Part shown: positions 1 to 57,045 of the stretch, piece by piece | How positions within the stretch are numbered: position 1 is the first letter of the stretch | How the letters are laid out: each line of letters starts with the position of its first letter | Assembly (NCBI GenBank): GCA_036172245.1 | Contig: JAYWIR010000003.1 | Coordinates: forward strand, 3,224,001 to 3,288,000 | Direction of reading: 5' to 3' | Length of the DNA: 64,000 bases | Origin: Raillietiella orientalis | Lineage: Eukaryota | The notes under the pieces: generated by a model | Told to the model about the DNA's origin: nothing | Databases searched by the model: none | Seen by the model: only the letters and a program-made list of their open reading frames with translations | Program-made: the position numbers and the translations under genes

Positions 1-50
1 CGCACCTTTCCAAGGTGCTTGCTCACCCGCATTCCCGCCATTGCTTCCAG

Positions 51-16464: not shown

Positions 16465-16589
16465 GGAAGCCTCTCTCTCCCCTCGTGACTTCTGAAAAAG
16501 CGCAACGCAAGCGGGGAAGGAGGCGACAGTTGCCTCCCCGTGCCTCCTCGTTCACAGGAAGACGGTCGCTCCTCTCGCTGGCGAGGGAG

Positions 16590-23443: not shown

Positions 23444-23759
23444 GATTTGTGTGGTCTGCCAGTTAGTGCTCATGAGTCAATAAAATCTTCATGATTTTAA
23501 TGAGTGTTTTTTCAAGAAATTGTATTTTCATATCTGAAAAAATAACAACTTTCTGGCAAAACTAGTGCTCGCTTCAACTAGGAAGACTTGAATGCCTAAA
23601 GTTTGCTACATCATGTGCCTTCCATGTAGGCATAGCATGTCAAGGACATAACATCTTCAACATATTGTTAGCTACCTTTTGGGATATTGGGAATGGATTT
23701 TTGTGACAGGTGGCATACGTTTTCGATTTCATATCTGTTTTTTTCCAGGTACTAGCAAA

Positions 23760-25582: not shown

Positions 25583-26099
25583 TGTATGAACAGTTTCAAT
25601 ACAGGATGTCCTGCTAATACTCTGCAGTTGATATTGAAATCGTATTTTCCCTGTGGCACATCAGCGAATAGAGTATAATAAATTCAAAAACGCCATGCGA
25701 ACCGCAAGTTCATCTGCGTGTCTCACTCAAAATGTTCATGACAAACTGGCATGAAATATTGAAATTTTCCCTTCCAAACGCAAAAAAGGTTTTCCTATTT
25801 ACACGGTCGTCTGTTCAGATGTTTCACTGTCTTTGCTGTATGCTTATAATGCCGCACCCGGAGTTCCAGTTCGTGCTAGTTTGTCCATAATTTTACGTCA
25901 ACGTATTTCCTGCACTATTTTGAGACGGCCATATACTATTTAATACAAAAGCATTGCAAGGAAAGTTATTGTAAAACTAATCATGTAATAAATTGACGCA
26001 CTTTTCCAAGTTCACGTACGTGTGGATGTGTATGCGGAAATCATTTCTGCTTTCACTCGGATGCAAAGGGGGCGATAAATTCAGAACTTTGCACCCAAT

Positions 26100-33060: not shown

Positions 33061-33799
33061 GACATGGCGGAAATCGTTCTGCAGATCGGGACTCTCCAGG
33101 GGTGCCATGACAGGACTTTCTGCACTTCGTGGACCTTCCACTCCGATATCGGTCCAAGGATCATGAATATTGCTTTTATTTACCTTTCCTTTGCATTGTA
33201 CTACTAATCCTTCTTTCAAGTCTATTTTCCTTGACTATTTCGGTCTGTAAATGTTTCAGGAGGCAAATTCCCACCGTTCTTTCTTTTGATTCAGTCTTTT
33301 TTGGTTAGCAAAGATCAAAATCATATCCAGATTCTTACAAACCGTTACTTTCTTGGTATAGAGCTGCACCCTAAGTGTATTCGTGACGAAGTGGAATTTG
33401 GTCACTACGAGGTGCACTCCCTTGAATGATGTTTTTCCCACGGTCGAACCTTGAATAAAAATTTATGAAAGTGATTTCCTGCTAATTTTCATTCCTTTTT
33501 CGATTGTTCTGATAATAATTGACATTTTCTCTGCATTGCTGCTTTTTTTCTGTTTGCTAAGGGAGCCCGTTCTTCACTGAAGGAATTTGTCGGTGGCAAC
33601 TAAGTATTTAATTTGATGCTAAGTAAATTAATGGAAATAGCGCTTGGCTGCCCTGGACTTCTTCTTGCAGACTGTTGTGTAGATACTGTAAAGAATGCAA
33701 TACCTGAGCAAACTTGTATAATGGAGTCAAGTGGTGTATTCACAAGATAGTGAAATATGTCATTAGCTTGGACACTTACTTCAAGAAGCCTCCATTGTA
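31765..33799. repeat. Duplication block C, copy 1
   Basis: Direct repeat of 46661-48667. Confidence 0.95.
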
Positions 33800-35826: not shown

Positions 35827-37443
35827 TTGCTCGACTCCCAGCGCAGGAAGCTTAGCAGCAGCACCCACGGATTTGAAGCGATGTGCACAAAAAGGGTTGC
35901 AGCCCGATGTCCATGTGAGTTTCTGGAACTGCCGATCATCATCTCGGGTGTGCCTCAGCGGGGAAGCAGAACTGGGAGTTACTATTGATAATAAAACGAG
36001 ATGGATGTGTCCGACAAGCTACGAAGACTGGAAAGCGAAAAACATTAGACACGGTGTGGGTTCGGCATTTGAGACTGCCGATCGGTTTTCGTGATTAAGC
36101 TCAGCAAGCAAAGGAGCGTGGTTCTTGAAAGCTGTTGGGTGAATTAAACGATGGTGCTGCCGTGTGGAGGATGGACGGCAAAGCGATCCGTTTGGCAGCA
36201 GTGGTTTTTCGATTTCCGCGTTCCTTCGCGTACTGAATGCCCCCTTTTTACGACTAACGCGACCCATCGGTTGCCGTTTGTACGATTTCGATTCGGGAAA
36301 GGGAAATTGTCCCAACGCAAGCACGTGATCAGCACTTACTGGTTTCAGGCGTTTCTCCACCGGTGCTTGGAGCGTGCAAGGTGCCACGGTCAGCGGTCAT
36401 CCTCGGTCATACGTTGATCGTGTGGATGGTTAGCCACGTGCATGGCTGCGCATGTCACCACGTGCGACGGTACTTGAGGTGCACGTGCTGCCCTTTTTTT
36501 TTTTTCCACCGCCGGTACTCTTCAGTACTGTACGAGGTACAGTACTGAGTACAGGCGTGGGCTGCCCAAGCAAATGGAAGCTGCTCGTGTTCGACCTGAT
36601 GCGACGGAACAGCACGCTGCCACTTCTCCAGTTGAGTGGGTCGGAACGAAAAACAGTTGCATTAAGCAAATCGCGTAAGGAAGTCGTCCGTCGCTTGAAA
36701 GGAACGAGCACGGAAAAGGCTTTTTTTGCGGGAGGGGGGGAGAGAGAGAGAGACGGAGAAGCTCAATCAGTGGGATGTATTGAGTGCCCAGGGAAAAGGT
36801 GCTCGTTTGAACATTGCACACGTGGTCATTCGGCCAGTCTTCCTGGCTTGCATCGAGGCACACAAGTCGACGAAATCCACAGTAAATTTCCGGTGTTGCC
36901 GAAGACCCCGTCGCTCAGGAGAGTTGCCTCGCAGGGGTGTGTTGAGAATAACCGAGAAACGAATGGGGGGAACGACAATTCCCCATCCCTGCATTTGCGA
37001 TGCTTTCCGATCAGCATGACGCTCGCCTTGGGCTCCAGGTCAGCAGCGAGAAGGCAGTCTTCGGGAGTTTCGGTGATCACGCGTTTGCGTTCGCGAGTCC
37101 ATTCGAACACGTGGAAGCACGCGATAACTCCTCGATTTCGCAAGAAACGCGCACAGAGGACGTGCGGACAGATGGGATGCTGATGAGGATCACAAGAGCG
37201 ACGAGCACAAGCTCGAAACAACCGTGTGCATGAAACGCTCGGGGCGGAAGGACCCACCTCGGACTTTCTCAAGTGCTCTCTTCACTTTGTGTCGGTTGCA
37301 AAGGCAACACAACAACTTTGCGCTCCCGTCGGAGAAGCTTCACTGATGGCCTACGGGGACACCGGGATGCCGGAAGGGAACATCGTGGCCATCCCAACCC
37401 GACCTCATTGCCCATGAGCGCTTGTCGCATCGGCGCTCGCTTT
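34917..37443. repeat. Duplication block D, copy 1 (RBFA exons 3-5 + downstream DNA)
   Basis: Direct repeat of 51095-53619. Confidence 0.95.
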
Positions 37444-37450
37444 CGGCTTT

Positions 37451-38207
37451 TCGGTTTTCATGCTGGCTGTGCTGTACTCCTCTCTTCGGTGTCGGAACGT
37501 CGCGGCTGCTATTCGCACCCGCCCACACACCTCTGCAGTTTGGCCGCCGGACAGGATGACTCGCTACAAGTCATCGGTCCATTCACGGCCCTTTTCCCCT
37601 GCCCGCACCAACAGGGCAGTACGCGCCAGGCCATTCATCGACAGATCGGAAGAGACTGCGGCAGAAATGCAGGCCGCCATGCGGATGCGAAACCTAAGAA
37701 TCCACTCAAGCACCTCAGCGGTCACTCTTTTTCTTTTTTTTTTCCCGGATATGTTCGGTTTCCGAGCATTGCACGCACGCGTGCGAAAGAAGGAAGCGGC
37801 GAAGACGCTCTTCGTGCCCAAGGGCACGCATTTTCGGCAGCCGGCCCTGCATGGGCGACTGGGAGTTGCCTTAAGCGCTCCATTCGGCGTGAAAAGGATG
37901 CTAGGTGATGCTCAGCATTGAGGGTGGCTGCTGCGAAGGAGATACAGCGGAGCTCCCTCCACGGGGAGTTACCTTGGAGCCGAGGTGAACCAAACTTTGG
38001 TGGCTGCGCGCGAAGGAAGAGCCGTCGGTCCATCCCAGATTGCCGCTCTTCTTTGGAGAAGGCACGTTGCTACAAATTCACATATGGCGGATACATAGAA
38101 CAGACTCAACTTTTATACGACCAAGTCTTAGTTTCCTGATTTCTAGAAACACCTCTGAATTTAGCACGGGAACTTATGAGAGCAGACTTGCTACCACCTC
38201 AGGGAAC
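37451..38207. repeat. Duplicated block A, copy 2
   Basis: Matches 7377-8125. Confidence 0.9.
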
Positions 38208-41200
38208 CAGGGTCGGGAATCTCGAGAATTGGCAACGGGGGGAGGAGGAGAGGGGCACATAGAGTAACCGTGCCGATCGGCGTAGAAACGAGGATCTTGG
38301 CAGCAGGAAGACGTTCAGGTATCCCCCCCATCGCACAGCACATAAGACGGAGAACTGTCCAGGCTAGGATCTAGGAGGCTATGACAGACTCTGTCGCTAG
38401 CTTCATCCTCCCTCTGCTCTCCTCCATCCTTCCAAGGGAATCAGAAAGCGGCCAATGGTACCCCCCGTTCTGTGGAAAGCTGCATTCCTCTTCCGGAAAG
38501 GCTTGAAGGGGAACCGGCAGGACGGAAAGTCCCACGGGTTCCTCGTACGGAGAAGGATGGTCGTCGTGCCCGGAAGGAACCGCACACGACAAGGTATCGG
38601 CTGCCGACCCTCTTTGGTCACTGGCCGCCAGGGCTCACCACGAGCGCGTTCGGTCCTGAAGAAGGCGATATACAGCCTTCTCTCCTGAATACCCGTAATT
38701 CAGACTAGGAGCAGGGAAAGGGAGGAGGGGAGAGAGAATGGGGAAGTGGGAAGCGGGTCTCTGGGGTGCCAATTACATCCCGAGGCCTCAGAGCCTCGCT
38801 TCCCTTCCCCGAATTGAACGTTGACTATGGATCTGCCCCTTCGAGTAGGGTCGCAGTCCAGGAACATCAGACCCTCCCGCGACTCCTCGAGTCTTCCTAA
38901 CGCGGTCCGACGAAAAGAACCTCCGGTATTTCCTTCTTGCCAGCGCAGCAACCTGGTCTCTTCCTTGGGGAGTGTGTCCTCCTGAGGCTCTTCCCTGCAC
39001 GAGGAGGATGCGGTGTCCTTCAGCCGACAAACATGGCGGTCTTGAGATCGATGACTAGCGCCTCGAACCTTTCTCTTTGCTCCGAAGTCTCTAGTAGGCC
39101 GCACGCGTCGTCTTGAAGCTGCTCCCTAGGACGGAGCTTTTCGACGCCACACCCCAGCAATTTCCCTCCCTATGTGCTTCGACTTGGGACAAAAAGCACC
39201 TATTTCTTTGCGGTCTCTACGAAAGAGCTGACTAGGAGGTGAGGAACCACCCAGCGAACAGAGAAATGAGCTCCCTCGATGGGAACTGGGATCTTCATTG
39301 GTTAACAAGGCTACACACCCATCATCTGCACTAAAGTGCAAAGGAGGATTACTCAGGGCACTGGGTGAACGGAACGATAGGGGCATCCAAGGAACAGAGG
39401 AAACCTTGGTACATTGTCTTCTTCTGTGTGAGTCTCCTAGAAAAGCGATCTGAGGCAATTCGAACGCGCAACATGTGGTCAGAGTTTCCATTCAAACTTC
39501 GGTGTTTACAGCCCGACCTCTGGAAGTTCCCTTTCCCGTGCTTTCAATTGCACACCAAATCTTTGTCATTATGGGTTCGTAAGTCTCACCCTTTGCTTTG
39601 GACAGAATCAGATTGCACGTTGTTGACTTGACCCTCGAAAACTTATCTGGGGACTGGTTGTGCAGGCCGCATCGATACAGCCCGTTGCCACAGTGTACGA
39701 TTTTCCTTTATTGGGAAAAGTTTTCCTAAGAAGAGCATCCGTCCATAATCTAAGAGTTCCAACAATCTGCTGGTGCTGCTCTTATTATCCAAAAGGATTT
39801 CCGAGTGCGTGGAGAAGAATCGTAATAGTTGCACAGAAGAGTTTCAACTTGCAAGCTACTAAATGGAGTTACCACGACATTACGTTGTTTTCTGAAATAT
39901 AATTCTTTTTTTCTGAAATATAACTTTCTTTGAATCCTCTAAAATATAATTTGGCTCGATTTGACACGCCACCATTCATAGCGGTTCCTTGGCTTTGCTT
40001 GTATAACAGTGGCGGAAAAATGAGACAAAGCAAAAACAGGAAAGCGTGTATAAGCAAAGAATATACTAAAGAGAGATCCAGTAACATTCATCGTTGTTTT
40101 TATGTGTTTCCAGTTTATGCACATGGCATCGTACAAATCCCTCTTGTGCAAATGGCGCTGCATTTCGTTTCCTCTACGTCTTTTGAAGCTTCGTCTGCAA
40201 AACGAAGCTCAAACATTGAGGAATGCGTTTGCATTCACATGGAATGCGTTCGTGGATACCTAAATGAGTGCTTTATTAATCTTTCATTTCTTCGTCATAA
40301 TGATCAAGTCACTGATTCCTACCGTGGTTGCGAAATGCCTTGCAAACAAATGGGGAAAGAAGGATGGAGAAACCGTGTCTGCAAAACGGAATAAGCAAAC
40401 ATGAATACGAAATTAGTCGGTTCAAGAACAGCACTAAAGACAGCTGTAAAAAAATGATCCGAAAGTAAAGGTGTTGAAACGATGTGCTCGCCTTCAGGAT
40501 GAGCAGTGGAGACTCCGATGGATTCAGCCGACTTGCTTTACGTGTTCCTTCTCCCTGTAAGGCAGCTTCACCTGCTGGAACTTCGTCTTAGGAAGAGAGT
40601 CCTCCCGATCCATCCTGCCCAGACTATGCTCACTTTCTGGGCTGGCTGATCGCTTGGAGTCTTTCATGACTGAGTTGCGCTGATGTCGTGAATCAGTCGA
40701 TGAGCTATGGATGAAATATGTGAAGAAGTCTGCTTCTGTGAAAAGTAAGCTACGTGCAGGTGTATCTGAAATTTACCAAGAGGATCCCCTTGAAAATACA
40801 CTTACAGACACGCTCAGTGGATGCAGACCGTAATAAAAGAGCCCGGAACGAATGAGGATGGAGAGGACGACGCCGCTGACGGAATCGACGAGCGCAGATT
40901 TCATATTTATGGACCACAAGTGCACAACATCATTGAACAGCTTTGGTGAGTCATCGGAGGTGTTCCTCGTGAACATATTGAGAGACTTCGTTGAGAGCCT
41001 CTTCCTCTGTTGACTCGTTCCTGGAACAACCAGCTGTTCCATGATCTGTTGCACCAACGCTGCTGAATATCTTGTCAATGACACGTATAGAAGAAGCCTC
41101 TGCAACAGCAAACGAAGGAAAGTTGTAAGGCAACTCCAAGAGGACCGTCCAAGATGAGTAAGAAATTGCTATTCCCAAAGTCTTTCGATGTGCAGTGATT

Positions 41201-42416
41201 CGAGGCCAATCTAGGGTCATGATTTTCAAAACATTCCTTCTTATTTTAAGTTGCAATTCTCGAATCGTGAGGTACTTCTCAGCCCGAGGCCTTCTGGCTT
41301 GTTCTCACCCACTGGGTGCTTCCTATTTTGAAAAAACCGTTTCTCATCAAATCGAACAAACGCAACATGCTTTCTGGCTGGTGAGTGGGCTGTGCACGTG
41401 CTGGGCAGTGGAAATCTGTGAAAATTCTTAAATGCTGCTGGTCAAATTGCTGCATAGGAGAGAAGTGGAGAGCTCTTTCTCGTCTATTCCGTGTGGCACG
41501 CGGTGCGCTGCAAATGGTACCAGTTGCGTACATCGTATTTTCTTAATGTTTCCCAGTACTTGAAGGGAAGGGCACGGAATGGACTATTTATTAGTGATTA
41601 CAGAACATTAACGACGGCATTTTTGTCACGACGACGATGCCGTAATAATTACTTAAGTAAATAATTTGATTGTCCTGCTGCCTGAAATTCAAAGGCATTT
41701 GTTCATTTCAGTGCGTCTTCCAGCTAATTTTGGACGTAAATGATGTAAAGCAAAGAAAAAGCATGCAAGTAATTCTTCACGTCATGAGTCATTTGTGACA
41801 TGACTAATGACATGAAGCACTGCAAAATCGTGCCCGCAGGGCCTCTTTCGTGGAAAAGAAAGTCTGCGAATCGGTCTTTTGCCAATGACGGGTGTGGACG
41901 AGGGCCACGTGCAGACCCAGTTTGCACCTTTCTTCGTTTTCAGTGTATCCGCTGCTCAACTTTTTGCCACATATCGAATCCACTGGCGTATTCTTCGTTC
42001 GTATTGCTAGGATTATACATGTTTGTTGCATGAGGACGGCATGTCAACATTCTACCGATGCAGTAGAAAGGTTCCATGAACCCAAAAATCGGGAGTACGT
42101 GGAATGTGCGAATGGTGAATGTCCAGACGTTGAATTTCATGGATGAGACCGTGTAGGATGTAAGAGTTTGTGTGTGTCGCGCCTTTGCTTTGCTGTGAAT
42201 TCAGAGTGATTCCTTACTCCTACCCGACGGGTTTGAAGCCGTGTAATTGCCTAAATAACTCGAGTGCTTGTGTTTGCACCGAATTGTCAGTATGCATTCC
42301 TAAGTGTTCATGGTGTTTGCAAAGATTCGCACGTGTTACGTGTCACAAACTACCCTACAGATGGGACATTGTGTTTGTTTTCTATCTACAGGTCGAATGA
42401 ACTACAGCTGAAGTTC

Positions 42417-43518
42417 ATGTCTGAAAATCAGATTTGCAATTTTGCAAGAAAACTTGCAGGAAATGAAAAAAAAAAAACGGGATAAGGCATTGAAGTATTT
42501 GCAGAAATGGATATCTTCTTGTAAACATCCATTTGTATCAGATGACATGATGAAACTGTGGAAAGGATTGTTTTATTGTTTGTGGATGGCAGACAAACCA
42601 TTAATTCAAGAAGAGGTCTCCGAAAAATTGAGCAAATTATTGTTTTCCTTTGATGGAGACAAAAACAAGTACCTTTTTGTGGAATGCTTTTACAGAACAC
42701 TGTCACGAGAGTGGCATCACATTGATAAATTTAGGATGGAAAAGTTCCTAATGCTAGTAAGAAGATTTTACCGTCAAGTTTTGTATTATGCTAAGTCAAA
42801 TGCGTGGGATCCCCAGATCATTCAAACAGTAACTAGCATCTTAAGGAAGACTGTGTTTTGTGATGATTGCCCTAATGGCTTGAAATGTCAAGTGATGGAT
42901 GTTTATTGTGAAGAACTAGCTAAACTTAGCGATTCTCAGCTTGGTCCAGAGAAAAATCTACTTTTCTTGGATTTATTTTGCCAACTTTTGGTGCAAGAAA
43001 GTGATGTTAGTGTGTTGACATTTATGGAAAACCGAGTGTTTGACCATCTGATGAGGCAGAGTGATCCTGGCATCAAGCATGATGTGAACTTTGCACGTAG
43101 AAGGAGAGGGGCATTTGGAAAACACTGTGAAGAGGCCGAGCCTGAAATGATAGAGATGGAAGATGACTTTGAGGAACAAGAACCTAGTGAGAAAGATCCT
43201 CGAGCTGGGAATGTAAATGTAGATTTGCCTCAGCTTCGGATAGACTATCTAGCTCTGGCTAATAAAATAGCTGAAGCATTGAAACAGCCAGGACTGAATC
43301 GCCAGTCAAAGAAAAGAGGAAATCGCTATGTGAAAGCATTCAAAAAATTGAATCAAGGACTGTATCCCTTGAAGATTGTGCTTCCAGACTCAGGATCTGA
43401 GCTGGATGAATCGGATGTTGAAAAGGCTACAGTGCGTTTGACACAATTAGAAGAAGAACTAATTGCAGATCAAGAACCATGTAGAAAGAAATGCAGGATA
43501 TTGGTAAAAAAGAAATGA
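42417..43518 (+). pseudogene. RRP1: RRP1 copy 2 with a +1 frameshift in a poly(A) run (or a homopolymer sequencing error)
   Basis: A12 at ~42466 versus A11 in copy 1; otherwise the same protein sequence. Confidence 0.65.
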
Positions 43519-43816
43519 GATTTGTGTGGTCTGCCAGTTAGTGCTCATGAGTCAATAAAATCTTCATGATTTTAATGAGTGTTTTTTCAAGAAATTGTAT
43601 TTTCATATCTGAAAAAATAACAACTTTCTGGCAAAACTAGTGCTCGCTTCAACTAGGAAGACTTGAATGCCTAAAGTTTGCTACATCATGTGCCTTCTAT
43701 GTAGGCATAGCATGTCAAGGACATTACATCTTCAACATATTGTTAGCTACTTTCTGGGATCTTCTGAATCGGTTTTCATGGCAGATGGCATACGTTTTAT
43801 TTCAGGTGCTAGCAAA

Positions 43817-45639
43817 ATGTCTCAGGATTCTGCAGTCCAATACAGAACTGTTGGAGACTATATCACAAAAATCATTCATCCAGCAGATCTAATAGATCAT
43901 GAATATGGTGAGGCCATTACTGAAGAAGTAACAACAGAGACTCCTAATTATCTGGAGGACCTCGGCAATATTCTCCTGCTATCATTTCTGTATGTGCTGC
44001 AAGGAGTGCCCATGGGACTGTCTGGCAGTGTGCCCATGATGCTTCAAGCCAAGGGTGCCAGTTATGTGGACCAGGGAAAATTCAGCTTGCATTCTTGGCC
44101 CTTTTGCATAAAATTGTTGTGGGCTCCTATTGTAGATTCAGTATATAGCAAGGTTATTGGCCGTCGCAAGAGTTGGTTGATCCCCTCCCAGTATCTGTTG
44201 GGAGTGTGCATGCTCATCTGTTCCTATCAAATTGATGGATGGTTAGGAAAAGATAATGGTACTTTGGATATCAACAGTCTATTATATGCTTTCTTCACAA
44301 TGTATTTCCTGGCTGCAACCCAGGACATTGCAGTGGATGGGTGGGCACTGACAATTCTCAAGCCGTAAGCATCTGGGCAACTGGTGCATTCTTATGTGTG
44401 CCAGGAAGAATGTGTGCTATGCCTCCACTTGCAGCAGCGTGGGTCAGTCCTTTGGTTATTTTTTGGGATACGTTCTCTTCTTGGCTCTGGAATCAAAAGA
44501 ATTTTGCAATTCATATTTGAGAATTTACCCCCAGCCAACTGGAATTGTGCAGTTGTCAGGTGAGGAAATGTTGCCTTTTCTGCTTGTTCACAGTGTCATT
44601 CTAGGATTTATCTACTTTTGGGGTCTTGTGTTTTTATTTACGACAACGGTAATCTTTTTTTTCAAAAAAGAGCAAACCGCCAAGGTCAGCAATTCCCCTG
44701 GACTTCTACACACATATCATATATTATGGAAAATCTTGCGATCACCCCCTGTGATGCAATTGACAATTTGTCTGCTCACCGCCAAGGTACAGCTGGTTAT
44801 TCCTCTTTCTTGTATTGCCAAGCAGATTGCTTTTTCAGCAGTGGATGGAGTGACTGGTCTTAAGCTTTTAGCAAAAGGTGTTCCAAAAGACAAAATGGCT
44901 CTCCTAGTTGTGCCTCTGATACCATTTCAGATTCTCTTTCCTCTGTGGATGAGTAAATTTATAACTGGTCCACGTCCATTGACAGTTTATATGAAGGCGT
45001 ATATTTACAGGTAGCTTCGTGTTTCTCATCTTCATTTACAGTGTTGCTTTCTCCAGAGTGATCATAGGATTAACTTTCCCTACCCTTGTTTGGTCGTATG
45101 AGTGGTGGGTGCGAGATACTAGTGTCACATGGTCCTTTTACTTTACTGTTTCCTTGCTGTACATACTTTATCAGGTAAACTGAATGTTCATGTTTCCGAT
45201 CACAGTGATTCCAGATTCCAAGTTATGCTATTTTCATGTCCCAAATAGCTTTTTTCAATAGAATCAGTGATCCAGTGGTAGGGGGTACCTATTTAACGCT
45301 ATTGAATACTCTAGCTAACATGGGATCAAATTGGCCTCTGACTAGTGTCCTGTGGCTAGTAGATCCGCTGACCTTCAAACACTGCACAGGTGTTGAATCG
45401 ACGTTTAGCTGTCATAGCAATACAACTGAGCAGGTAAAATGAAACCAAACAACCACCTTGCTTTATGGTCTTGGCAGACATGCCACGATTTGGGTGGAAC
45501 TTGCGTAACCACTTTGGATGGCTACTACATTTGTGTATTACTGACAACTTTCTTTGGACTTTTGTGGTGGCGTTATTTCCGCCATGTGTTCTCCAGGCTA
45601 GAGGTTCTTCCGCAGCGTCGTTGGAAATGTGTTCACTGA
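43817..45639 (+). CDS. SLC33A1: Acetyl-CoA transporter 1, copy 2
   Basis: Same exon structure as copy 1, frame intact, about 11 amino-acid differences. Confidence 0.9.
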
Positions 45640-46660
45640 TGTATGAACAGTTTCAATACAGGATGTCCTGCTAATACTCTGCAGTTGATATTGAAATCGT
45701 ATTTTCCCTGTGGCACATCAGCGAATAGAGTATAATAAATTCAAAAACGCCATGCGAACCGCAAGTTCATCTGCGTGTCTCACTCAAAATGTTCATGACA
45801 AACTGGCATGAAATATTGAAATTTTCCCTTCCAAACGCAAAAAAGGTTTTCCTATTTACACGGTCGTCTGTTCAGATGTTTCACTGTCTTTGCTGTATGC
45901 TTATAATGCCGCACCCGGAGTTCCAGTTCGTGCTAGTTTGTCCATAATTTTACGTCAACGTATTTCCTGCACTATTTTGAGACGGCCATATACTATTTAA
46001 TACAAAAGCATTGCAAGGAAAGTTATTGTAAAACTAATCATGTAATAAATTGACGCACTTTTCCAAGTTCACGTACGTGTGGATGTGTATGCGGAAATCA
46101 TTTCTGCTTTCACTCGGATGCAAAGGGGGCGATAAATTCAGAACTTTGCACCCAATGACTAACCACCGAGCTCTTAACCCTGTGTTTCTAACTTCCTAGC
46201 CAGCATCCCACTTATGTAAGCCGCATTCTGGTCAAGTCCCTCCTTTTTCCATGCTTTCTCTTGGTATTTCGGGTGGTTCCGATGCTTGTTACTATGTCTG
46301 GGAATGGTCCGTTTCGTACTGCACATATTTCTTCACATGGTTCACCGGATGCAACAAAGTTCTTTTTCCTTCTCTTTCGCTCTATTTCTCCACTTGATCA
46401 TCGATGGCGCAGATGCTTGAAAGCTCAACGCAACCATCCATTCCCGGAATGACATTTGCTCCTCGTTTCTTCCGAGCTTTGGAAATCAATTGCCTCCTCC
46501 AAACCAGACTCCTGGCTCGCTTTTAGCAATAGCTTCAGCCGAAACTCAGAATGGAGAATAGCCACTGGAACCACTCTTCTACCTCCGCCAAAGTCATTTC
46601 TTCAAAACGAAAACGAGACTTCCGATCCTTCTATATGATAGGTCACCATCATTGAGATGC

Positions 46661-48667
46661 TCGATTTCTCTAGAGGGTAAGCTACGACTCGAGTGCCTCA
46701 CCGACCGCCGATCCAAAGGAGAGGGAACAACGGGTAGTCTTGATCGATTAAAAGGTCAATTATGAGGAAGCGCTTGGCTGACGGCTCACGAAGTTCTTTG
46801 GCGCTGCCCCCGTCACTCAAGCAAGAGAGTGCTCTGGGAGGGGACCACTCTATGAATCCAGCAAGGTCTCCGAAGAAAGGAATGGGTTCCTCTTGCTCTC
46901 GGGTTGTCTCCAGAAGGGAATCCCGAAAGGAACGAACGTCTTCCTTATTCTCTCCGGAGGGCTCCCGCGGAGAGTACTGCTCCGCGGAGGAACCGAAATG
47001 GAACCGCTCCTCGCTTCCTTGTCTGAGAAGAACATCGAAGGGACGCGTCCGAATTTCTCTGTGATTAGCTCCCCGATGAAAACAAGGCCCCTGATGGCAT
47101 TTTGGGGAGCCAGCCCTCCGAGAGAGGTATCAACCCGCTCCATGGTACGCGACGGAGGGAGGGTGGGTCTTTACAAAAGGTGTGGACGGCTCCATTTGCG
47201 CAACCCGAGAGGAGTCTTGTAGGGATCGGTTACCTTGGATCCGGGAAGGACCCTGAAGGGCCAACTCCCAATCTCGGTCGGTCAAGAGCGCATCCGCTGG
47301 TTTTCGAGTTCCACCAGCGCTGCACCCGAATAAACAGCCAGAGTCATCTTGTGGGAGGAACTCGAAAGACCACTCATTTCTCTGTCGTTGGTGCTTCGTG
47401 TGGACACGGGCAGAGAGTTTGGCAGATTGTCGGCACGCTAGATGAACCTTCGGGTGCTCCTCCAGGAAGAACCGTAGGCCCTCTAAATCCGGATGGACAT
47501 CTCCGTGCTCACCTCGCTCCCTCCCACCTCTATCCAACAAGGGAAGAGGCTGTTTCTTTACGGGAGATCCGCCTTCAGTAGGCGAGGCCACCGTTGGATT
47601 TGTGGGAACTGCTCGCAGAGCTTCCCGGAGTGCGGCAGAATCGGAATTTCTTGCTGCATAGTGGCGCCCTTCTTCCAGGGAGAGAGCGGCCAGATGCAGC
47701 AGCCTTCTCGCGCCCCACCGACGCCATCCGCCGACGTTGTTGAGGCGTTTGTTTGTCTGTCGAAGGCTGCGGACGGCGTCGGTTTTCGCGAGACCTTGTG
47801 CCATACCTGTGCGGAGGCACGCCTGAGACGGAGACGGCGCTTCGAAGAGGCCGAGACCACACTTGCGGCGGCGGTTTCTACGGTGCGTCGAAGCAGCAGT
47901 CAGTTAGCCACGTGAACTGACATCGAAGGACATGGCGGAAATCGTTCTGCAGATCGGGACTCTCCAGGGGTGCCATGACAGGACTTTCTGCACTTCGTGG
48001 ACCTTCCACTCCGATATCGGTCCAAGGATCATGAATATTGCTTTTATTTACCTTTCCTTTGCATTGTACTACTAATCCTTCTTTCAAGTCTATTTTCCTT
48101 GACTATTTCGGTCTGTAAATGTTTCAGGAGGCAAATTCCCACCGTTCTTTCTTTTGATTCAGTCTTTTTTGGTTAGCAAAGATCAAAATCATATCCAGAT
48201 TCTTACAAACCGTTACTTTCTTGGTATAGAGCTGCACCCTAAGTGTATTCGTGACGAAGTGGAATTTGGTCACTACGAGGTGCACTCTCTTGAATGATGT
48301 TTTTCCCACGGTCGAACCTTGAATAAAAATTTATGAAAGTGATTTCCTGCTAATTTTCATTCCTTTTTCGATTGTTTTGATAATAATTGACATTTTCTCT
48401 GCATTGCTGCTTTTTTTCTGTTTGCTAAGGAAGCCCGTTCTTCACTGAAGGAATTTGTCGGTGGCAACTAAGTATTTAATTTGATGCTAAGTAAATTAAT
48501 GGAAATAGCGCTTGGCTGCCCTGGACTTCTTCTTGCAGACTGTTGTGTAGATACTGTAAAGAATGCAATACCTGAGCAAACTTGTATAATGGAGTCAAGT
48601 GGTGTATTCACAAGATAGTGAAATATGTGATTAGCTTGGACACTTACTTCAAGAAGCCTCCATTGTA
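46661..48667. repeat. Duplication block C, copy 2 (ends in a dead RBFA exon-1 stub)
   Basis: Matches 31765-33799; ATGTCA has become ATGTGA at ~48625. Confidence 0.93.
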
Positions 48668-50356
48668 CAACCGTGTGCTTGAAAAGCTCTGGGCGGAAGG
48701 ACCCACCTCGGACTTTCTTAAGTTCTCTCTTCACTTTGTGTCGGTTGCAAAGGCAACAAAACAACTTTGCGCTCCCGTCGGAGAAGCTTCACTGATGGCA
48801 TACGGGGACACCGGGATGCCGGAAGGGAACATCGTGGCCATTCCAACCCGACCTCATTGCCCATGAGCGCTTGTCGCATCGGCGCTCGCTTTCCGCCGCG
48901 AATGCAGAGCTGCACGACGAATGTATGCGGTGCGAAACTATTTAAGGCGGCAAATTTAAGAACGCTGACCATTGACCTCAAAATTCCGAAGCACAAGATG
49001 CAGCCAGCCAGCTGGCCGGTTTTCTGTTTTCTTTTAAATTGCATTCTTGTTGAGGTTAACCCATTGTAGGAAAACAAGACTTAGGACGTGTGAGTGGGCA
49101 CGTGTCACGTACGCGGGCAGAATGAGCTCCTGCACCGGTAGAGTTATTCGTAGTTGTGCAATCACCATCGTGATGCCAGAGCGAATGCCCGACATCGTGC
49201 GTTCCCAGCCTGCGGTACTCCTTGGTTTGGATGTGGTCGCATCACTGAGGCTGCAGGTCATGCAGCAGTGGCTGCTGGAAATGGTGCCTTATAAATGTTT
49301 GCGCCATCCTGGGTGTATCCAAGCAAATACACAAGCGTTTATTGTCTCCTTCCGATGTCCACTTTTACCATATCAAATATTTGTTGAACACTCATCTCAC
49401 CGTCTATGTAAACCACATCACAATATGTCTCTTTCACGAATTTCAAGTATTCTTCGTACATCGGCCACACGCACAGATCGAAATAGCCCTCCGCATCAGG
49501 AGTATCGTAAAGACGCTTCTCTCTCCTGCTCATGCACGTGCTCTTTTCAAGTTGAAGAAAATATTCCTTATCACACAAATTCCCTAGATATCTTGAAGCA
49601 AACACAAGGAATCCTTCTATGAGAATAGGGGTTCCTTGTTCGCGACGCACGTGCAAAGCACGATACACATCTTGCATCATCTTATCCATGTCGATGGCAG
49701 TTATCACATCATAATTTTTAAAGGTGTAACCCGAAACCAGCTGATGATGGTCGTCATCTTGAGGATAGTAGTAATCATCCTGGTTGATTACAATACAGTG
49801 CCCAAAATGTTCCTCCAAGCTGGTCGCAAGGGTTGTTTTCCCGCCACAAGTGACCCCTGATATGCCAACCACCGGAGCTAGCGTTTTTCTCAGATGTTCT
49901 GGTACTCCTGCTGGAACTTTCGAAAGTCTTCCTCCGTGAACATGGTTGTCTTTTTCTTTTTGCTTTTCTTTTGAAGCGGGAGGCGATTTGAATATTTCAG
50001 AATCTGGAAGGATCACAGGAAACGCTAAGCCACACTTACATTTCTTGTGGTGGTGGCAGAGATGTGGGTTGTGCTCAGTTGCAAGATAATCTTGGAAATT
50101 ATGTGCAGTGTTTATCGTTTCGTGATTTCTAGTTTCGTTGCTTTCTTCCTTGTTCGTTCTCTGATCTTGTGGAGCTTGCAGAGCTGGAAGATCCTCAGAG
50201 AAGAACTCTGAACCATTTTGCACCAATGACGCCGCCATTCTGATGAAAGAACCTATTTTGCATGAAAGCACATCATAGATTTCATGTGAAGGTGGTTTCA
50301 GAGAGATCTCTCCCACCAAACAAAGAATTTATTCTTCGTCGAGGATCTGTAAACAG
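48667..50356. repeat. Duplication block E, copy 1 (NRK/AROS locus)
   Basis: Matches 53394-55082; its first ~225 nt also match 37218-37443. Confidence 0.93.
49339..50238 (-). CDS. NMRK1: Nicotinamide riboside kinase with an AROS-derived N-terminal extension (299 aa unspliced, 287 aa if the 36-nt intron is removed)
   Basis: VVGISGVTCGGKTTLA P-loop, INQDDYY, NYDVITAIDM, ILIEGFLVF, GYFD.CVWPMY; AUG at 50238 in frame, preceded by acceptor-like tttcatcag. Confidence 0.85.
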   Translation of the reverse strand: MAASLVQNGSEFFSEDLPALQAPQDQRTNKEESNETRNHETINTAHNFQDYLATEHNPHLCHHHKKCKCGLAFPVILPDSEIFKSPPASKEKQKEKDNHVHGGRLSKVPAGVPEHLRKTLAPVVGISGVTCGGKTTLATSLEEHFGHCIVINQDDYYYPQDDDHHQLVSGYTFKNYDVITAIDMDKMMQDVYRALHVRREQGTPILIEGFLVFASRYLGNLCDKEYFLQLEKSTCMSRREKRLYDTPDAEGYFDLCVWPMYEEYLKFVKETYCDVVYIDGEMSVQQIFDMVKVDIGRRQ

Positions 50357-51222
50357 GAATAACGTACAACGAGGTAAGGTTAGCCTGTTAAAATAGAAAT
50401 GACATTTTCACCAAGTCAGTAATTTGTTTGCTTTGCTGCTACAACGATGAAAAAATTGAAACTTTGTAATTCAGATTGAAAACCGACTCAGTATTTCAAT
50501 TGAACCAGCACTCCGTGTATTTCTTCATTCTCTTATTCTTTCTGCGGAGTCTTGATATTTTGGATGCCTTTGTTCAGGGTGCATGCCATTCAAATGCAAA
50601 CCTTCAGTTTGAGTTTCTCAAATAGAAGCCTACAGTGTTCTGATTCGAAGTTAATTTGTGTTTGTGGTTGCAAAGTTGTTAGTGAATTTAACGTTGATTC
50701 AGTTCATTGCTAATCGTATGTTAAACGTATGTAATGTTGGGGTGCACCGTTTGAAGATAGGAAATCCTTCAAAGAAAGAAAGACGTGTTGCAAGTGTTTT
50801 GAATGGTGCTGTGTGCAAAAGGATAATTCTCAAGGTATTCGTGCCATGCTGAAGTGAATGAAAGAAGTTCCAAATTTTTGATCCAGCATGGGAGGATGCA
50901 ATTACTTTGTATTCCTTCAGATTGGTGTGCAACAGGAAGGTTGTGTCTAGAGGTTGTTAAGAGTTTTGTTATCTAAATCGCTCTATAATGTTGTAGATGC
51001 AAAATAAGCTCCTCACTGTGGAGAATCCAAAAATTCCTGAAAGAATTGACATTATTAGTGATCATTAGTTCTTATTCTGCCACCTATAATCATCTTTCAA
51101 TTACTCCACTCAGAAAGTGAGAAAATGTCTATCATGATTGTGTTCATGTATGTGTCTGGTGCTGCACAAAATCTCACACCATTAGACTGATTAAATCTTT
51201 ATGTGCTTGTTCTTACTTTTAG

Positions 51223-52004
51223 GTACAGGTGTCAAAGTCACTAAGGGGCTTGGTTGTCTATTGGACATGTTCCCACAGTGAGAAGGATGTTGTCATAGAA
51301 AATTTATTAAATGAGAGCATTGATACAGTGCGGCAAGAACTGGCAACTCATATCCAGCTACACTCTGTACCATACATTAGCTTCAGCAAAGACAGATTAT
51401 ACGAGAGGGAGATGCAAGTCGAAAACTTGTTAGCTACGGCAGATTATGGGGAAAACTATCAACCACTACTTTCAACAAGGAGAGCTCACGGTGCTTTGGA
51501 AGTAGATAAGGTTGGAAAAGAAATGTGGCATGAATGTCAGATCACATGTTCGTGCAGGATGAAGTTCAGTCATTGAATCATCCACTGTTGACTGTTCCTG
51601 AAAATACACTTGGGCTTCCTCACAGCAAAATTTGGGCAAAGGTATGGGTTCCCCTTCGTGTCCATCTTTTATAACTTACGAAGTTTCAGATTGTAAAGAA
51701 AAAAAGAGAAGAGAGACTATGTCCAAAAGAATCAAAGTCTCTACAGGAATTGCAGGCCTTTTATGATTGTTCAAGTGAACAGCTCATATTGAAGAGGAAG
51801 GACTTTGTCAAGGCACTGAAACAGAGACGAGCACATATACAGAATCTCAACCAGGATATGAAGCAATCAGAAATGGAAGTTTCTGAAATCTCACCCCTGG
51901 AAGCAGAGGATGAGAGCTGCAGTTACTGCGACGACGACGACGACCAGGATGAGGATTACAACGAATTAGATTGGCGTGCAGACGCAGGCAGTGCAGAGGA
52001 TTAG
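51223..52004 (+). pseudogene. RBFA: RBFA partial duplicate (exons 3-5 only)
   Basis: Same sequence as 35045-35826 but lacks exons 1-2 upstream. Confidence 0.75.
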
Positions 52005-54064
52005 TTGCTCGACTCCCAGCGCAGGAAGCTTAGCAGCAGCACCCACGGATTTGAAGCGATGTGCACAAAAAGGGTTGCAGCCCGATGTCCATGTGAGTTT
52101 CTGGAACTGCCGATCATCATCTCGGGTGTGCCTCAGCGGGGAAGCAGAACTGGGAGTTACTATTGATAATAAAACGAGATGGATGTGTCCGACAAGCTAC
52201 GAAGACTGGAAAGCGAAAAACATTAGACACGGTGTGGGTTCGGCATTTGAGACTGCCGATCGGTTTTCGTGATTAAGCTCAGCAAGCAAAGGAGCGTGGT
52301 TCTTGAAAGCTGTTGGGTGAATTAAACGATGGTGCTGCCGTGTGGAGGATGGACGGCAAAGCGATCCGTTTGGCAGCAGTGGTTTTTCGATTTCCGCGTT
52401 CCTTCGCGTACTGAATGCCCCCTTTTTACGACTAACGCGACCCATCGGTTGCCGTTTGTACGATTTCGATTCGGGAAAGGGAAATTGTCCCAACGCAAGC
52501 ACGTGATCAGCACTTACTGGTTTCAGGCGTTTCTCCACCGGTGCTTGGAGCGTGCAAGGTGCCACGGTCAGCGGTCATCCTCGGTCATACGTTGATCGTG
52601 TGGATGGTTAGCCACGTGCATGGCTGCGCATGTCACCACGTGCGACGGTACTTGAGGTGCACGTGCTGCCCTTTTTTTTTTCCACCGCCGGTACTCTTCA
52701 GTACTGTACGAGGTACAGTACTGAGTACAGGCGTGGGCTGCCCAAGCAAATGGAAGCTGCTCGTGTTCGACCTGATGCGACGGAACAGCACGCTGCCACT
52801 TCTCCAGTTGAGTGGGTCGGAACGAAAAACAGTTGCATTAAGCAAATCGCGTAAGGAAGTCGTCCGTCGCTTGAAAGGGACGAGCACGGAAAAGGCTTTG
52901 CCCGGGAGGGGGGGGGAGAGAGAGAGAGACGGAGAAGCTCAATCAGTGGGATGTATTGAGTGCCCAGGGAAAAGGTGCTCGTTTGAACATTGCACACGTG
53001 GTCATTCGGCCAGTCTTCCTGGCTTGCATCGAGGCACACAAGTCGACGAAATCCACAGTAAATTTCCGGTGTTGCCGAAGACCCCGTCGCTCAGGAGAGT
53101 TGCCTCGCAGGGGTGTGTTGAGAATAACCGAGAAACGAATGGGGGGAACGACAATTCCCCATCCCTGCATTTGCGATGCTTTCCGATCAGCATGACGCTC
53201 GCCTTGGGCTCCAGGTCAGCAGCGAGAAGGCAGTCTTCGGGAGTTTCGGTGATCACGCGTTTGCGTTCGCGAGTCCATTCGAACACGTGGAAGCACGCGA
53301 TAACTCCTCGATTTCGCAAGAAACGCGCACAGAGGACGTGCGGACAGATGGGATGCTGATGAGGATCACAAGAGCGACGAGCACAAGCTCGAAACAACCG
53401 TGTGCATGAAACGCTCGGGGCGGAAGGACCCACCTCGGACTTTCTCAAGTGCTCTCTTCACTTTGTGTCGGTTGCAAAGGCAACACAACAACTTTGCGCT
53501 CCCGTCGGAGAAGCTTCACTGATGGCCTACGGGGACACCGGGATGCCGGAAGGGAACATCGTGGCCATCCCAACCCGACCTCATTGCCCATGAGCGCTTG
53601 TCGCATCGGCGCTCGCTTTCCGCCGCGAATGCAGAGCTGCACGACGAATGTATGCGGTGCGAAACTATTTAAGGCGGCAAATTTAAGAACGCTGACCATT
53701 GACCTCAAAATTCCGAAGCACAAGATGCAGCCAGCCAGCTGGCCGGCTCTGCTTTTCCTTTTAAATTGCATTCTTGTTGAGGTTAACCCATTGTGAAAAA
53801 GGAGACTTAGGACGTGTGAGCGGGCACGTGTCACGTACGCGTGCAGAATGAGCTCCTGCACCGGTAGAGTTATTCGTAGTTGTGCAATCACCATCGTGAT
53901 GCCAGAGCGAATGCCCGACATCGTGCGTTCCCAGCCTGCGGTACTCCTTGGTTTGGATGTGGTCGCATCACTGAGGCTGCAGGTCATGCAGCAGTGGCTG
54001 CTGGAAATGGTGCCTTATAAATGTTTGCGCCATCCTGGGTGTATCCAAGCAAATACACAAGCGT

Positions 54065-54619
54065 TTATTGTCTCCTTCCGATGTCCACTTTTACCATATC
54101 AAATATTTGTTGAACACTCATCTCACCGTCTATGTAAACCACATCACAATATGTCTCTTTCACGAATTTCAAGTATTCTTCGTACATCGGCCACACGCAC
54201 ACATCGAAATAATCCTCTGCATCAGGAGGATCATAAACACGCTTCTGTCTCCTGCTCATGCACGTGCTCTTATCAAGTATAAAAAAATATTTCTTATCAC
54301 ACAAATTCCCTAGATATCTTGAAGCAAACACAAGGAATCCTTCTATGAGAATAGGGGTTCCTTGTTCGCGACGCACGTGCAAAGCACGATACACATCTTG
54401 CATCATCTTATCCATGTCGATGGCAGTTATCACATCATAATTTTTAAAGGTGTAACCCGAAACCAGCTGATGATGGTCGTCATCTTGAGGATAATAGTAA
54501 TCATCCTGGTTGATTACAATACAGTGCCCAAAATGTTCCTCCAAGCTGGTTGCAAGGGTTGTTTTCCCGCCACAAGTGACCCCTGATATGCCAACCACCG
54601 GAGCTAGCGTTTTTCTCAG
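54065..54619 (-). CDS. NMRK1: Nicotinamide riboside kinase lacking an in-frame AUG before the P-loop (start uncertain; candidate CTG at 54619)
   Basis: Intact NRK motifs including RVYDPPD..YFD.CVWPMY; AATAAA overlaps the stop codon. Confidence 0.8.
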   Translation of the reverse strand: MRKTLAPVVGISGVTCGGKTTLATSLEEHFGHCIVINQDDYYYPQDDDHHQLVSGYTFKNYDVITAIDMDKMMQDVYRALHVRREQGTPILIEGFLVFASRYLGNLCDKKYFFILDKSTCMSRRQKRVYDPPDAEDYFDVCVWPMYEEYLKFVKETYCDVVYIDGEMSVQQIFDMVKVDIGRRQ

Positions 54620-54963
54620 ATGTTCTGGTACTCCTGCTGGAACTTTCGAAAGTCTTCCTCCGTGAACATGGTTGTCTTTTTCTTTTTGCTTTTCTTTTGA
54701 AGCGGGAGGCGATTTGAATATTTCAGAATCTGGAAGGATCACAGGAAACGCTAAGCCACACTTACATTTCTTGTGGTGGTGGCAGAGACATGGGATGTGC
54801 TGAGTTGCTGGAGAATCTTCAAGTTTTGTTGCAGTTTTTCTTCCTTCGGGAGTTCTGGAATCTCTGGTTTGTGCTTTTTCTTTCGCGGTTTCTTGGTTGC
54901 TTGCAGGACTGGAGGATCCTCTTGGAAAAATTCCAGACTTTTTTTCACTAATGATGCAGACAT
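54616..54963 (-). CDS. RPS19BP1: Active regulator of SIRT1 / RPS19-binding protein 1, 103 aa, 2 exons (54963-54766, 54729-54616)
   Basis: N-terminus MSASLVKKSLEFF (cf. MSAALLRRGLELL) and C-terminus KKKTTMFTEEDFRKFQQEY (cf. TVFTEEDFQKFQQEY), joined by a 36-nt GTAAGT..TTCCAG intron. Confidence 0.88.
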
Positions 54964-55101
54964 TCTGATAAAAGAACTCTGTTAGCAAACAAGCACATCA
55001 TAGCTCTGATGTGAAGGTGGTCCTAGAGTGATCTCTCCCACCAAACAAAGAATTTATCATCTTTCAAGAATCTCTAAACAGCATTTATTAATAAGCTGAG
55101 T

Positions 55102-57045
55102 TTACATCACATAAGATGGTACTTTTGCGTTGCCTGAGGATGCAAGTGAATCATCATCCAGAATGCCAGATGCCTTCTGGATGTATTGTGGATTAAGCAG
55201 CACTTCTTCTTCCATCTTCAGCAGCAACTTCTCTAGATCCATTGCTGATTCAATCTAAAAAGGCCACAAAAGCCCTCCACAACTTTTGTCAAAGGTATTG
55301 CCTACCGCATGGTCCAGCTTCCTCAGCATTTCTGGACTGTTGAATTTTTCCAAATTGTCTTCAAAAACAACATTGCCATCCTGCTGACTGATGCGTGCTG
55401 CTATGTCTCCATCTTCAATCATGTGAAGCACAAGCATTTCCGCTTCCTGTGGTGAAGACAGCTGTACCCGATGAGCCATATCCGAAAGAGAAAGTGTCAT
55501 GAACGTTTTGGTTAATCTCTGTATATTCTTCTTATACAAAGAAGCTACAGTCTGCTTCACTAGACCCATATTTTTGTCCCTAGAGTAGGATAGTTGGTCA
55601 AAATGAAACTTGTGATGTTTCTCATACCTAAGGTACTGTTCTTCATATTTATTTACCATCTGCTGTACGTTGGTCACATTGTTAGAGGAATACGCTGCTG
55701 CTAGCTCGTGATAGGGCTGGCACAAGGAGCGAAAGAAACGGCTCACCACACTTGAACAATATTTGGGCAAGTCAGAAATCTACTGATGCTATTAGGGTGG
55801 CTATTCTTGTGGTCGAATTTCAGGCTTACCTTCCCATAGAGCATGAGGGAAACAAGAATGTATTTTTTGTAGGCTTCCAGCATGATATGAGATACAGCAA
55901 GTGCAGGAGTTGTCACACACACTTGGAAAAAGTAGTGAGCTCTATCAAAGTTCTTCACTGCCATGTAAATCATTCCTCCATAATAATAATAGAGCAGAAA
56001 GCTCTGGACATCATAATGACCATTCTGCTTGGCAATTTTAGAAAACAGCTTTCCTAGATGGAGGGTACTTGCTTCATGGCTTATGTCAGCAACATCTATA
56101 TCCAGGAAATCCAAAACTGGTCTGAAGTTCTGTGCCAGTAAGCTGAGCTGGCATAGGTCAGTATGGACTGAAGTTAACTGTGATTCAAACAACTGAATTT
56201 TCTGAATCGCCTTGCACAATATATTGATCCCTCTGTGTGATGCTTGCTTTTCAACCAGACTCTGGGCAAACATATGGCACAATTGTGCATCTGGAAACAG
56301 CATTCCTTATCATTTCTATGCTGAAATTCTTTAAACCTTCAGAACTTACATAGATCTGTGGCAAAACGGACTTGTTCTCCATTACATGCTGTGATAAATT
56401 CATGAAACTGTGCATACAGAGGTTCATAATCAGGAATATTAGCAAGAGAAAATTTCACATATAACACAAGCAATATTCCCAAGGAATGCTGTTGAAGATC
56501 TAGAGTAGCCAGAACATTGTCAAGATGCACAGCACTTTTTGACAGAAATTCTGCAGCCTTTAGAAGGTAATCATACAAATGTGAGAAATTTCCTGAAACC
56601 AACAAAGGTGCATTTACATTTTTTTTTTTTTTCCACACAATTTAATGCAGTTGGAGGATTTGCATAAAATTATTGCGGGCTACGAAATAAGTTGATGGGA
56701 GTAAGCAGCTTTAACACCACCTTCTCTAAATAGGTCACACGGAATACACACGGTTAGGATCCCTTTTTTTTAAACATTTGCCTAGATTTATGTGTATTGA
56801 ATTTTCCGGCACTGCAGTTCCGTTATTCGATTTTCATTTCTCTGGCACGTTTCCTTATCCTCATTCAAAAAGCACTGGTTCCTTAACTCACGGGCAAAAC
56901 GCAAAAAAAGTGCTGATCCCGACAGCACGTGAAAACAGCACAGCAACCGCAAACACGAAACCTGTTCGGAAGGAAGCATTTTCCAGTTACCTTGGGCAGA
57001 GAGTGTTCTGACTGTTGTAACGTACTGTTCCAAAGTGGAAGCCAT
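55102..57045 (-). CDS. COPS3: COP9 signalosome subunit 3, multi-exon
   Basis: [80 protein letters not shown]; exon 1 57045-56991, exon 2 56592-56350; ends PSYVM*. Confidence 0.96.

Follow-up and report, generated by a model that had tools for sequence, protein, structure and literature searches.

In a 64,000-nt stretch of the Raillietiella orientalis genome (NCBI GenBank assembly GCA_036172245.1, contig JAYWIR010000003.1, positions 3,224,001 to 3,288,000 of the forward strand; from here: the window, with positions counted from its first letter), sequences for AROS (RPS19BP1-like) and nicotinamide riboside kinase (NRK) occur as a tandem pair of genes, of which one member, copy B, probably encodes both proteins in overlapping reading frames. 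In the other member, copy A, AROS has certainly been lost and an ATG stands in frame with an intact-looking kinase. We give an even chance to the reading that copy A is a kinase-only paralog of an overlapping AROS/NRK gene. This reading starts from the anatomy, the homologies and the age of the two copies, the avoidance of stop codons in copy B and the mosaic left by gene conversion. Whether copy A is transcribed and translated into an active kinase appears about evenly balanced when judged from the sequence.

In the history proposed here, the ancestral locus would have given rise to one mRNA with two overlapping frames, namely AROS (RPS19BP1-like, two exons, 103 codons) and a kinase in the -1 frame, the long N-terminal extension of which would overlap the entire AROS coding sequence. 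Copy A would be an old tandem paralog of this dual-frame locus. By a net gain of one base near nt 87 of its coding sequence, the kinase frame would have been linked to the AROS ATG and the ~28 codons that begin with it, the former AROS frame being shut by a TAA. From the ordinary first AUG of copy A, a ribosome would then synthesize a single product, a kinase with a disordered leader of ~120 residues, and no unusual decoding would be needed. Copy B would have kept AROS intact and its ATG-less kinase frame open.

Anatomy of the two copies

Exactly two gene copies of AROS/NRK were detected within the 64-kb window by tblastn. Both are located on the minus strand, with copy A ~4.7 kb downstream of copy B (Table 1). 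The translation of copy A from the ATG at 50238 begins with MAASLVQNGSEFF... and continues without a stop codon through ...VVGISGVTCGGKTT... to the TAA at 49341-49339. This stop-free translation of 299 codons bears out a preliminary description of the locus, according to which the AROS-like start of copy A runs straight into the NRK frame. The same description had given exon 1 a length of 199 nt in copy A (50238-50040) and of 198 nt in copy B (54963-54766), and had placed the net additional base between about nt 66 and 108 of the coding sequence. Aligning both exons reproduced the two lengths, and MAFFT set a single gap at nt 87, inside that interval. Here, the additional base of copy A faces an A5 run in copy B (nt 85-89 of the coding sequence); its placement is good to roughly +/-15 nt, the interior of exon 1 being only ~65% identical. 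When the AROS exon-1 peptide of copy B was compared with copy A by tblastn, residues 1-58 were matched in the ATG frame and residues 9-66 in the +1 frame. The AROS frame of copy A had also been described as lost in two ways, and we found the same, once by the frameshift and once by a TAA (CGA TAA, 50117-50112). The segments of frame that are in use in copy A contain no stop codons, and the two abandoned segments contain one each.

Exon 1 ends in both copies with ...ACCACAAGAAAT followed by GTAAGT, and its last 23 bases are the same. Because the intron that follows is 36 nt long, a multiple of three, the kinase frame of copy A is kept whether it is spliced or not, giving 287 codons if the intron is removed and 299 if it is retained. 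The unspliced open reading frame (ORF) includes the peptide CHHHKKCKC, as noticed before. The description of the extension as Lys-rich holds modestly, with 11 K in the 94 residues from 29 to 122; the extension is about as rich in His (10 H, with 9 E). The AROS exon-2 sequence of copy A is read in the NRK frame, as a part of the extension, and no canonical poly(A) signal other than the AATAAA over the kinase stop follows the ATG.

In copy B, a strong acceptor-like TTCTTTTATCAG is followed by one base and then by the ATG at 54963, from which an intact AROS of 103 codons is encoded in two exons. If left unspliced, the 36-nt intron brings a TAG and a TGA into the AROS frame. The two exons were used as separate queries, not as one spliced protein. 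Exon 2 matched the Pfam family AROS (PF15684) with 35 bits (cut-off 27; E=2.5e-8) over profile positions 97-128 of 129, and human AROS (7mqa_LY, from the small-subunit processome structure 7MQA) with E=5.3e-5 over residues 109-133. Exon 1 (66 aa) matched no Pfam family at E<=1 and no PDB sequence at E<=10. Relative to AROS, the NRK frame of copy B is the -1 frame; its last 177 codons are nicotinamide riboside kinase, and it contains no ATG before the P-loop. In copy B, the stretch between the two stop codons has neither AATAAA nor ATTAAA, and the AROS and NRK frames must therefore share one mRNA with one 3' end.

The kinase is a regular NRK in its sequence, its residues and its predicted fold. 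That of copy A matched human NRK1 (2qg6_A) with E=2.6e-34 over residues 5-185 of 199 and the Pfam family AAA_18 with 38.1 bits (cut-off 29.4), and the best database match (45% identity, 74 hits) is named nicotinamide riboside kinase 1. All 23 columns that are invariant in an alignment of 12 NRK sequences are kept in copy A. When aligned to 2qg6_A, it is identical to human Nrk1 at T12, K16, D36, D56, E98, R129, R132 and Y134, and the same is true for copy B. In the work on human Nrk1 by Tempel et al. (PMC1994991), D36 and E98 appear as essential and T12, K16, D56, R129, R132 and Y134 as active-site or substrate residues. For copy A residues ~120-299, AlphaFold2 returned a pLDDT (predicted local distance difference test) of ~90 (blocks mostly 88-96) with alternating strand and helix elements, and a Rossmann-like nucleoside kinase fold is confidently predicted. 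No AROS domain was present among the 74 NRK database hits or in the 15 long ones that were rescanned. In a scan of metagenomes with the kinase domain, 36 pattern matches led to a single, uninformative locus with 34% identity and no AROS beside it.

Table 1. Coordinates of the features of copy A, copy B and the adjacent CSN3 gene within the window
Feature	Position	Strand	Details
Copy A continuous ORF	49339..50238	minus	299 codons plus stop; AROS-type ATG, then 120-residue extension, then NRK domain
Upstream region common with copy B	50239..50331	minus	conserved block, upstream ATGs, strong acceptor-like TTCTTTCATCAG whose end lies 1 nt upstream of the ATG
Copy A exon 1	50040..50238	minus	199 nt; codons 1-28 in AROS frame, remainder in NRK frame
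TGA in abandoned NRK-type (-1) frame of copy A	50195..50197	minus	upstream of the indel
Zone of the net +1 base, copy A	50137..50167	minus	MAFFT gap at alignment column 269, equal to coding sequence nt 87, ~50152
CGA TAA, stop in abandoned AROS frame of copy A	50112..50117	minus	frame reads ...EITKR, then stop, after the shift
Intron, GTAAGT...TTCCAG	50004..50039 (copy A)	minus	36 nt; same sequence in both copies
AROS exon-2 sequence in copy A	49890..50003	minus	100% identical to copy B; no in-frame start reaches the AROS frame
NRK domain, copy A	49342..49875	minus	P-loop GVTCGGKT at 49857-49834
AATAAA over the NRK stop (CAATAAACG)	49338..49343 (A), 54064-54069 (B)	minus	in both copies
Copy B exon 1	54766..54963	minus	198 nt; AROS frame from ATG; -1 (NRK) frame also stop-free
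A7 run, copy B exon 1	54945-54939	minus	coding sequence nt 19-25, AROS codons 7-8
Copy B AROS exon 2	54616..54729	minus	ends ...TMFTEEDFRKFQQEYQNI, then stop; overlapped by NRK frame
Copy B NRK-frame ORF	54065..54997	minus	opens 11 codons upstream of the acceptor; ends with TAA 54067-54065
COP9 signalosome subunit 3 (CSN3) gene	55102..56600	minus	directly upstream of copy B; stop 55104-55102; AATAAA 55089-55084

Copy age, gene conversion and the standing of copy A

Between copies A and B, the synonymous sites of codons 1-28 are saturated, with a proportion of synonymous differences (pS) of 0.63 and a synonymous divergence (dS) of ~1.35. Up to the common last 23 nt, exon 1 is identical at 117/176 positions (66%). 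The tract that spans the end of exon 1, the intron and the start of exon 2 is identical at 237/237 positions and the tract after it at 257/259. Within the kinase, there is a patch (alignment columns 855-945) with 78/91 identical positions, and the tract through the stop codon and the 3' flank is identical again at 359/359 positions. The simplest reading is an old duplication in which gene conversion has homogenised the 3' 1.3 kb over and over, sparing exon 1 and one patch. Exon 1 of copy A is not a duplicated haplotype because it is unique sequence and 66% identical to copy B. The preliminary description had proposed that duplication resolved a dual-coding locus into a kinase-only paralog. This stands in so far as copy A lost AROS and has its ATG in frame with a complete NRK, and as copy B looks dual-coding. 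As a resolution by duplication it is one-sided, though, with copy B keeping both frames, and the duplication is old, given the dS of ~1.35 in codons 1-28.

The signs that copy A is functional are suggestive only. In codons 1-28, the proportion of non-synonymous differences (pN) in the ATG frame is 0.25, which yields a pN/pS of 0.39 (Fisher P=0.005), and the values for the other frames are 0.74 and 1.33. A pN/pS of 0.39 in the ATG frame while synonymous sites are saturated points to protein-level constraint on the N-terminus of copy A. The acceptor-like motif and the ATG are conserved between the copies, alongside an upstream block in which 45/51 positions are identical, compared to 103/158 in the interior of exon 1 (~65%). 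This block (ATAAATTCTTTGTTTGGTGGGAGAGATC..., minus strand, 50281-50331 in copy A and 55006-55056 in copy B) has a GU/U-rich composition and could act as a promoter or initiator, as an intercistronic element or, for the poly(A) site of the CSN3 gene, as the downstream element.

Several observations weigh against a working copy A, and part of them fit the alternative that copy A is a duplicate in decay, which we regard as possible, if rather doubtful. In that case, AROS would be dead, the kinase ORF would be intact only via repeated conversion from copy B, and the in-frame ATG would be a side effect of a random +1 slip; both frames having been open beforehand, the odds that it led into the kinase frame were one in two. 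In neutral simulations that started from a B-like exon with one added base, the fused frame was open in 21-12% of the cases at 26-36% divergence and in 12-37% across divergences, and the open fused frame is for this reason not significant alone. The integrity of the kinase in copy A may come from gene conversion, with A and B 100% identical in the tracts of 237 and 359 nt, and not from selection. In the unconverted kinase patch, 9 of the 11 differing codons are non-synonymous, including a Pro to Thr change by which copy A departs from a nearly invariant Pro that 11/12 aligned NRKs keep; from exon 2 through the kinase stop codon, the count in this frame is 9/13. Past the indel, no frame is constrained (pN/pS 1.08, 1.31 and 0.99), and copy A is without the upstream CSN3 gene that precedes copy B.

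To these points come others that touch the start and the leader of copy A. The constraint on codons 1-28 could date from the time when copy A was still an intact AROS gene, and several upstream ATGs would hamper the translation of copy A unless the acceptor before its ATG is used. Leader residues 1-113 have a pLDDT below 50 and are predicted to be disordered. A HMMER search with the leader (122 residues) among 1.84 billion representatives returned no credible relative; its sole match, a protein of 3,822 residues that aligned in 17 stretches with 24% identity, was read as low complexity. Of six contig pieces obtained from one DNA run, four (151-154 nt, 100% identity) correspond to flanking DNA, and none lies over exon 1 of either copy.

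Decay fits poorly, on the other side, with the pN/pS of 0.39 (P=0.005) in the ATG frame of codons 1-28 at saturated synonymous sites, and with the fact that the ATG, the acceptor motif and the upstream block (45/51) were kept while the interior of exon 1 fell to 65% identity. Both abandoned frame segments gained stop codons, and the used ones did not. Moreover, the kinase patch does not single out copy A, since copy B also has a radical change in it, a Gly to Asp at another site that is kept by 11/12 aligned NRKs.

Probable dual coding in copy B and possible entries into its kinase frame

When the codons of the copy B AROS were shuffled, the -1 frame remained open with P=0.0095 for exon 1, 0.035 for exon 2 and 0.00045 for the whole coding sequence (103 codons). 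Under synonymous resampling, the corresponding value for exon 1 was P=0.003. The -1 frames of other genes in the window have a stop rate of 0.065 per codon (81 in 1,239 codons), at which 103 open codons are expected with P ~0.001; this evidence for stop avoidance is weakened by the control, in which one of seven control segments itself had an open -1 run of 100 codons. The third frame of copy B exon 1 has three stops. The case from stop codons, good if not conclusive, is that copy B is probably truly dual-coding, with its kinase frame translated across the whole overlap. The extension of copy A had been taken for former alternate-frame sequence. This part of the description we do not follow: stop avoidance suggests that the frame is already translated in copy B, and if the kinase frame of copy B is translated over the overlap, the leader is not merely such sequence.

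If both frames are translated, copy B must enter its ATG-less kinase frame by some non-standard route. Candidates are slippage at the A7 run, a tandem donor, an upstream exon that is spliced to the acceptor in phase 0, and near-cognate or re-initiation starts. The first of these, which we consider unlikely, would have the ribosome or the polymerase slip by one base at the A7 run of exon 1, producing mostly AROS and a minor -1 fusion of the AROS leader with NRK. Copy A would then be the hard-wired derivative, in which the A run is lost (CAAAAT), a TGA just after it closes the -1 frame, and the +1 base 60 nt downstream makes the shift permanent. The kinase frame of copy B is stop-free past A7, which is consistent with slippage, though also with other routes from an upstream start. 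There is no canonical X XXY YYZ slippery heptamer in the AROS frame of copy B, only the A7 run, and the RNA folds examined as frameshift stimulators, downstream of A7 (z=-0.61) and at the A-rich stretch in exon 2 (z=+0.24), were no better than shuffles.

With regard to splicing, 19 GT..AG removals could join the AROS ATG to the kinase frame in copy B. Two of them have a pyrimidine-rich ...CCAG acceptor, and only one of the two, a 32-nt intron with its donor 4 nt downstream (GTAA/GTGTGG), uses the normal intron acceptor. This tandem-donor intron is kept as a candidate; it would leave the stop avoidance in exon 1 unexplained. Skipping of a CSN3 exon into the AROS acceptor is a further possibility; by eye, both sides are in phase 0, which suits the kinase frame. 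Two other entries were rejected. An upstream mini-exon from an ATG at ~55060 in copy B gives the wrong phase and a stop when joined at the GTGGGA site (by eye). A spliced leader that donates the AUG is unlikely, as it would create harmful upstream starts at the acceptors of Nop52 and Acatn, two further genes in the window (see below). The copepod spliced leader given in Table 1 of PMC4664967 ends with ...AAGAG.

We also think it improbable that the kinase of both copies starts independently of the AROS ATG, with the long upstream open frame being irrelevant and the fusion in copy A an optional leader. One option would be an ACG, a near-cognate codon located 7 nt past the stop of AROS (AAA ACG CTA GCT...) and reached by re-initiation or leaky scanning, which would give an NRK of canonical length. 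Seven of the ten database NRKs in the alignment start no more than about a dozen residues from the P-loop strand, and the ACG, with an A at -3, is located where their Met lies; the extension is disordered and without sequence constraint. Such a start would leave the stop avoidance over 103 AROS codons of copy B unexplained (P=0.00045; exon 1 alone P=0.0095), and in copy A, ribosomes coming from the ATG would read through the ACG site anyway. Very unlikely, finally, is an error of sequencing or assembly, with a true exon of 198 nt and copy A an AROS pseudogene (TAA) with a kinase frame without ATG, as in copy B: none of the contig pieces covers exon 1 and the window is rich in segmental duplicates of 95-99.5% identity that are hard to assemble and polish, but the indel zone of copy A has no homopolymer of at least five bases, its exon 1 is unique and, at 66% identity to copy B, no collapsed or duplicated haplotype, and, with the TGA in the -1 frame upstream of the indel, there would be no open route into the intact kinase ORF without the +1 base.

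Locus setting and comparison with known systems

The nearest protein matches are to arthropods, with 45% identity of the NRK to a mantis-shrimp protein (74 hits) and 65% identity of CSN3 to spider and insect proteins (314 hits). The genome is of the compact eukaryotic type, and the five introns measured in the window are ~48-80 nt long. From the AATAAA of CSN3 to the AROS acceptor of copy B, the gap is ~119 nt. A strong pyrimidine-rich ...CAG acceptor occurs 1-11 nt before the first ATG in all three genes examined, AROS, Nop52 and the acetyl-CoA transporter (Acatn), the respective sites being 54964-55089 on the minus strand and 22318 and 23749 on the plus strand. In Nop52, the ATG after the acceptor opens an upstream ORF of four codons, and the gene's own start is located ~27 nt further downstream. 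An acceptor just before the ATG together with a close CSN3 poly(A) signal looks like operons with spliced-leader trans-splicing, or like introns in 5' untranslated regions.

Between the two AROS/NRK copies and on the opposite strand, there is a gene for an RbfA-like protein (ribosome-binding factor A, Pfam E=1.3e-8; 51223-51573, plus strand), and a second RbfA-like copy lies inside 34913-37444. The former diverges from copy A over ~900 nt of unique sequence, making a shared bidirectional promoter possible. The window contains several direct segmental duplicates with 95-99.5% identity (18117-26605 vs 38213-46662; 31765-33799 vs 46661-48667; 34913-37444 vs 51091-53620; 7377-8126 vs 37451-38208), which hold two copies each of Nop52, the acetyl-CoA transporter and the RbfA-like gene. 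They are either real recent duplications or uncollapsed haplotypes, and because of these highly identical segments, caution is in place regarding the quality of the assembly near the locus. In the two Nop52 copies (22181-23440 vs 42412-43515), the open frame upstream of the conserved domain extends over 420 and 368 codons (stop to stop), respectively, despite ~99% identity of the surrounding duplicate. At the beginning of the window (1-18200), long open frames exist on both strands and in many frames, with one match to an alpha-2-macroglobulin/complement TED domain (14310-14996). It probably represents a large gene for a thioester protein, in sequence with unusually few stop codons.

In the nuclear genomes of animals, two ancient and conserved proteins seldom have coding frames that overlap, and the origin and dissolution of coding overlaps are known mostly from viruses. 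At the locus described here, the overlapped and the resolved state stand side by side. If copy A is expressed, the pair would be a clean case of a dual-coding constraint that was lifted, at the level of reading frames, by duplication. The pair also offers direct access to what is now the most interesting question, namely how the kinase frame is decoded in copy B. Should the slippage route be true, the two copies would constitute a paired natural experiment in an animal nuclear gene, a programmed frameshift standing next to its fixation in the genome, and the gene would link ribosome biogenesis and SIRT1 regulation to NAD+ salvage. AROS is named for activating the NAD+-dependent SIRT1; its pairing with a kinase of NAD+ salvage may be coincidental, but is worth noting. 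A literature search that included work on dual coding and on duplication returned no published link between AROS and NRK genes.

With NRK (NMRK1/2; human Nrk1 2QG6, 2P0E), the kinase of this locus shares full-length homology, the P-loop, the catalytic and substrate residues and the predicted fold. It differs by a disordered leader of ~120 residues that has no homolog and, in copy B, by a frame without its own ATG. Like AROS/RPS19BP1 (PF15684; 7MQA_LY), copy B ends a small basic protein with the conserved ...TxFTEEDFxKFQQEY, whereas no match to the Pfam model or to human AROS was obtained for its first 66 residues. Copy A is not an AROS gene, since a frameshift and a TAA break its AROS frame.

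Dual-coding genes, refashioning of genes by frame shifts and subfunctionalisation after duplication are already known. Dual-coding genes and frame-shift 'gene refashioning', as exemplified by the moss YAN/AltYAN gene (PMC5908804), resemble the situation found here in that one transcript carries overlapping frames for two proteins and a change of frame gives rise to a new N-terminal part. They differ in that both partners at the locus described here are ancient conserved proteins, that the overlap is limited to the added leader of the kinase, and that a tandem paralog has the overlap undone on one side. The tandem pair, the loss of one product in one member and the mosaic of 100% identical tracts and diverged patches are what subfunctionalisation after duplication and conversion would look like. 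The partition, however, is between reading frames of the same DNA and not between expression domains or protein activities, and it is incomplete, as copy B keeps both. What would be new here is a tandem pair in which one locus is overlapped and the other has had its overlap undone by a single base.

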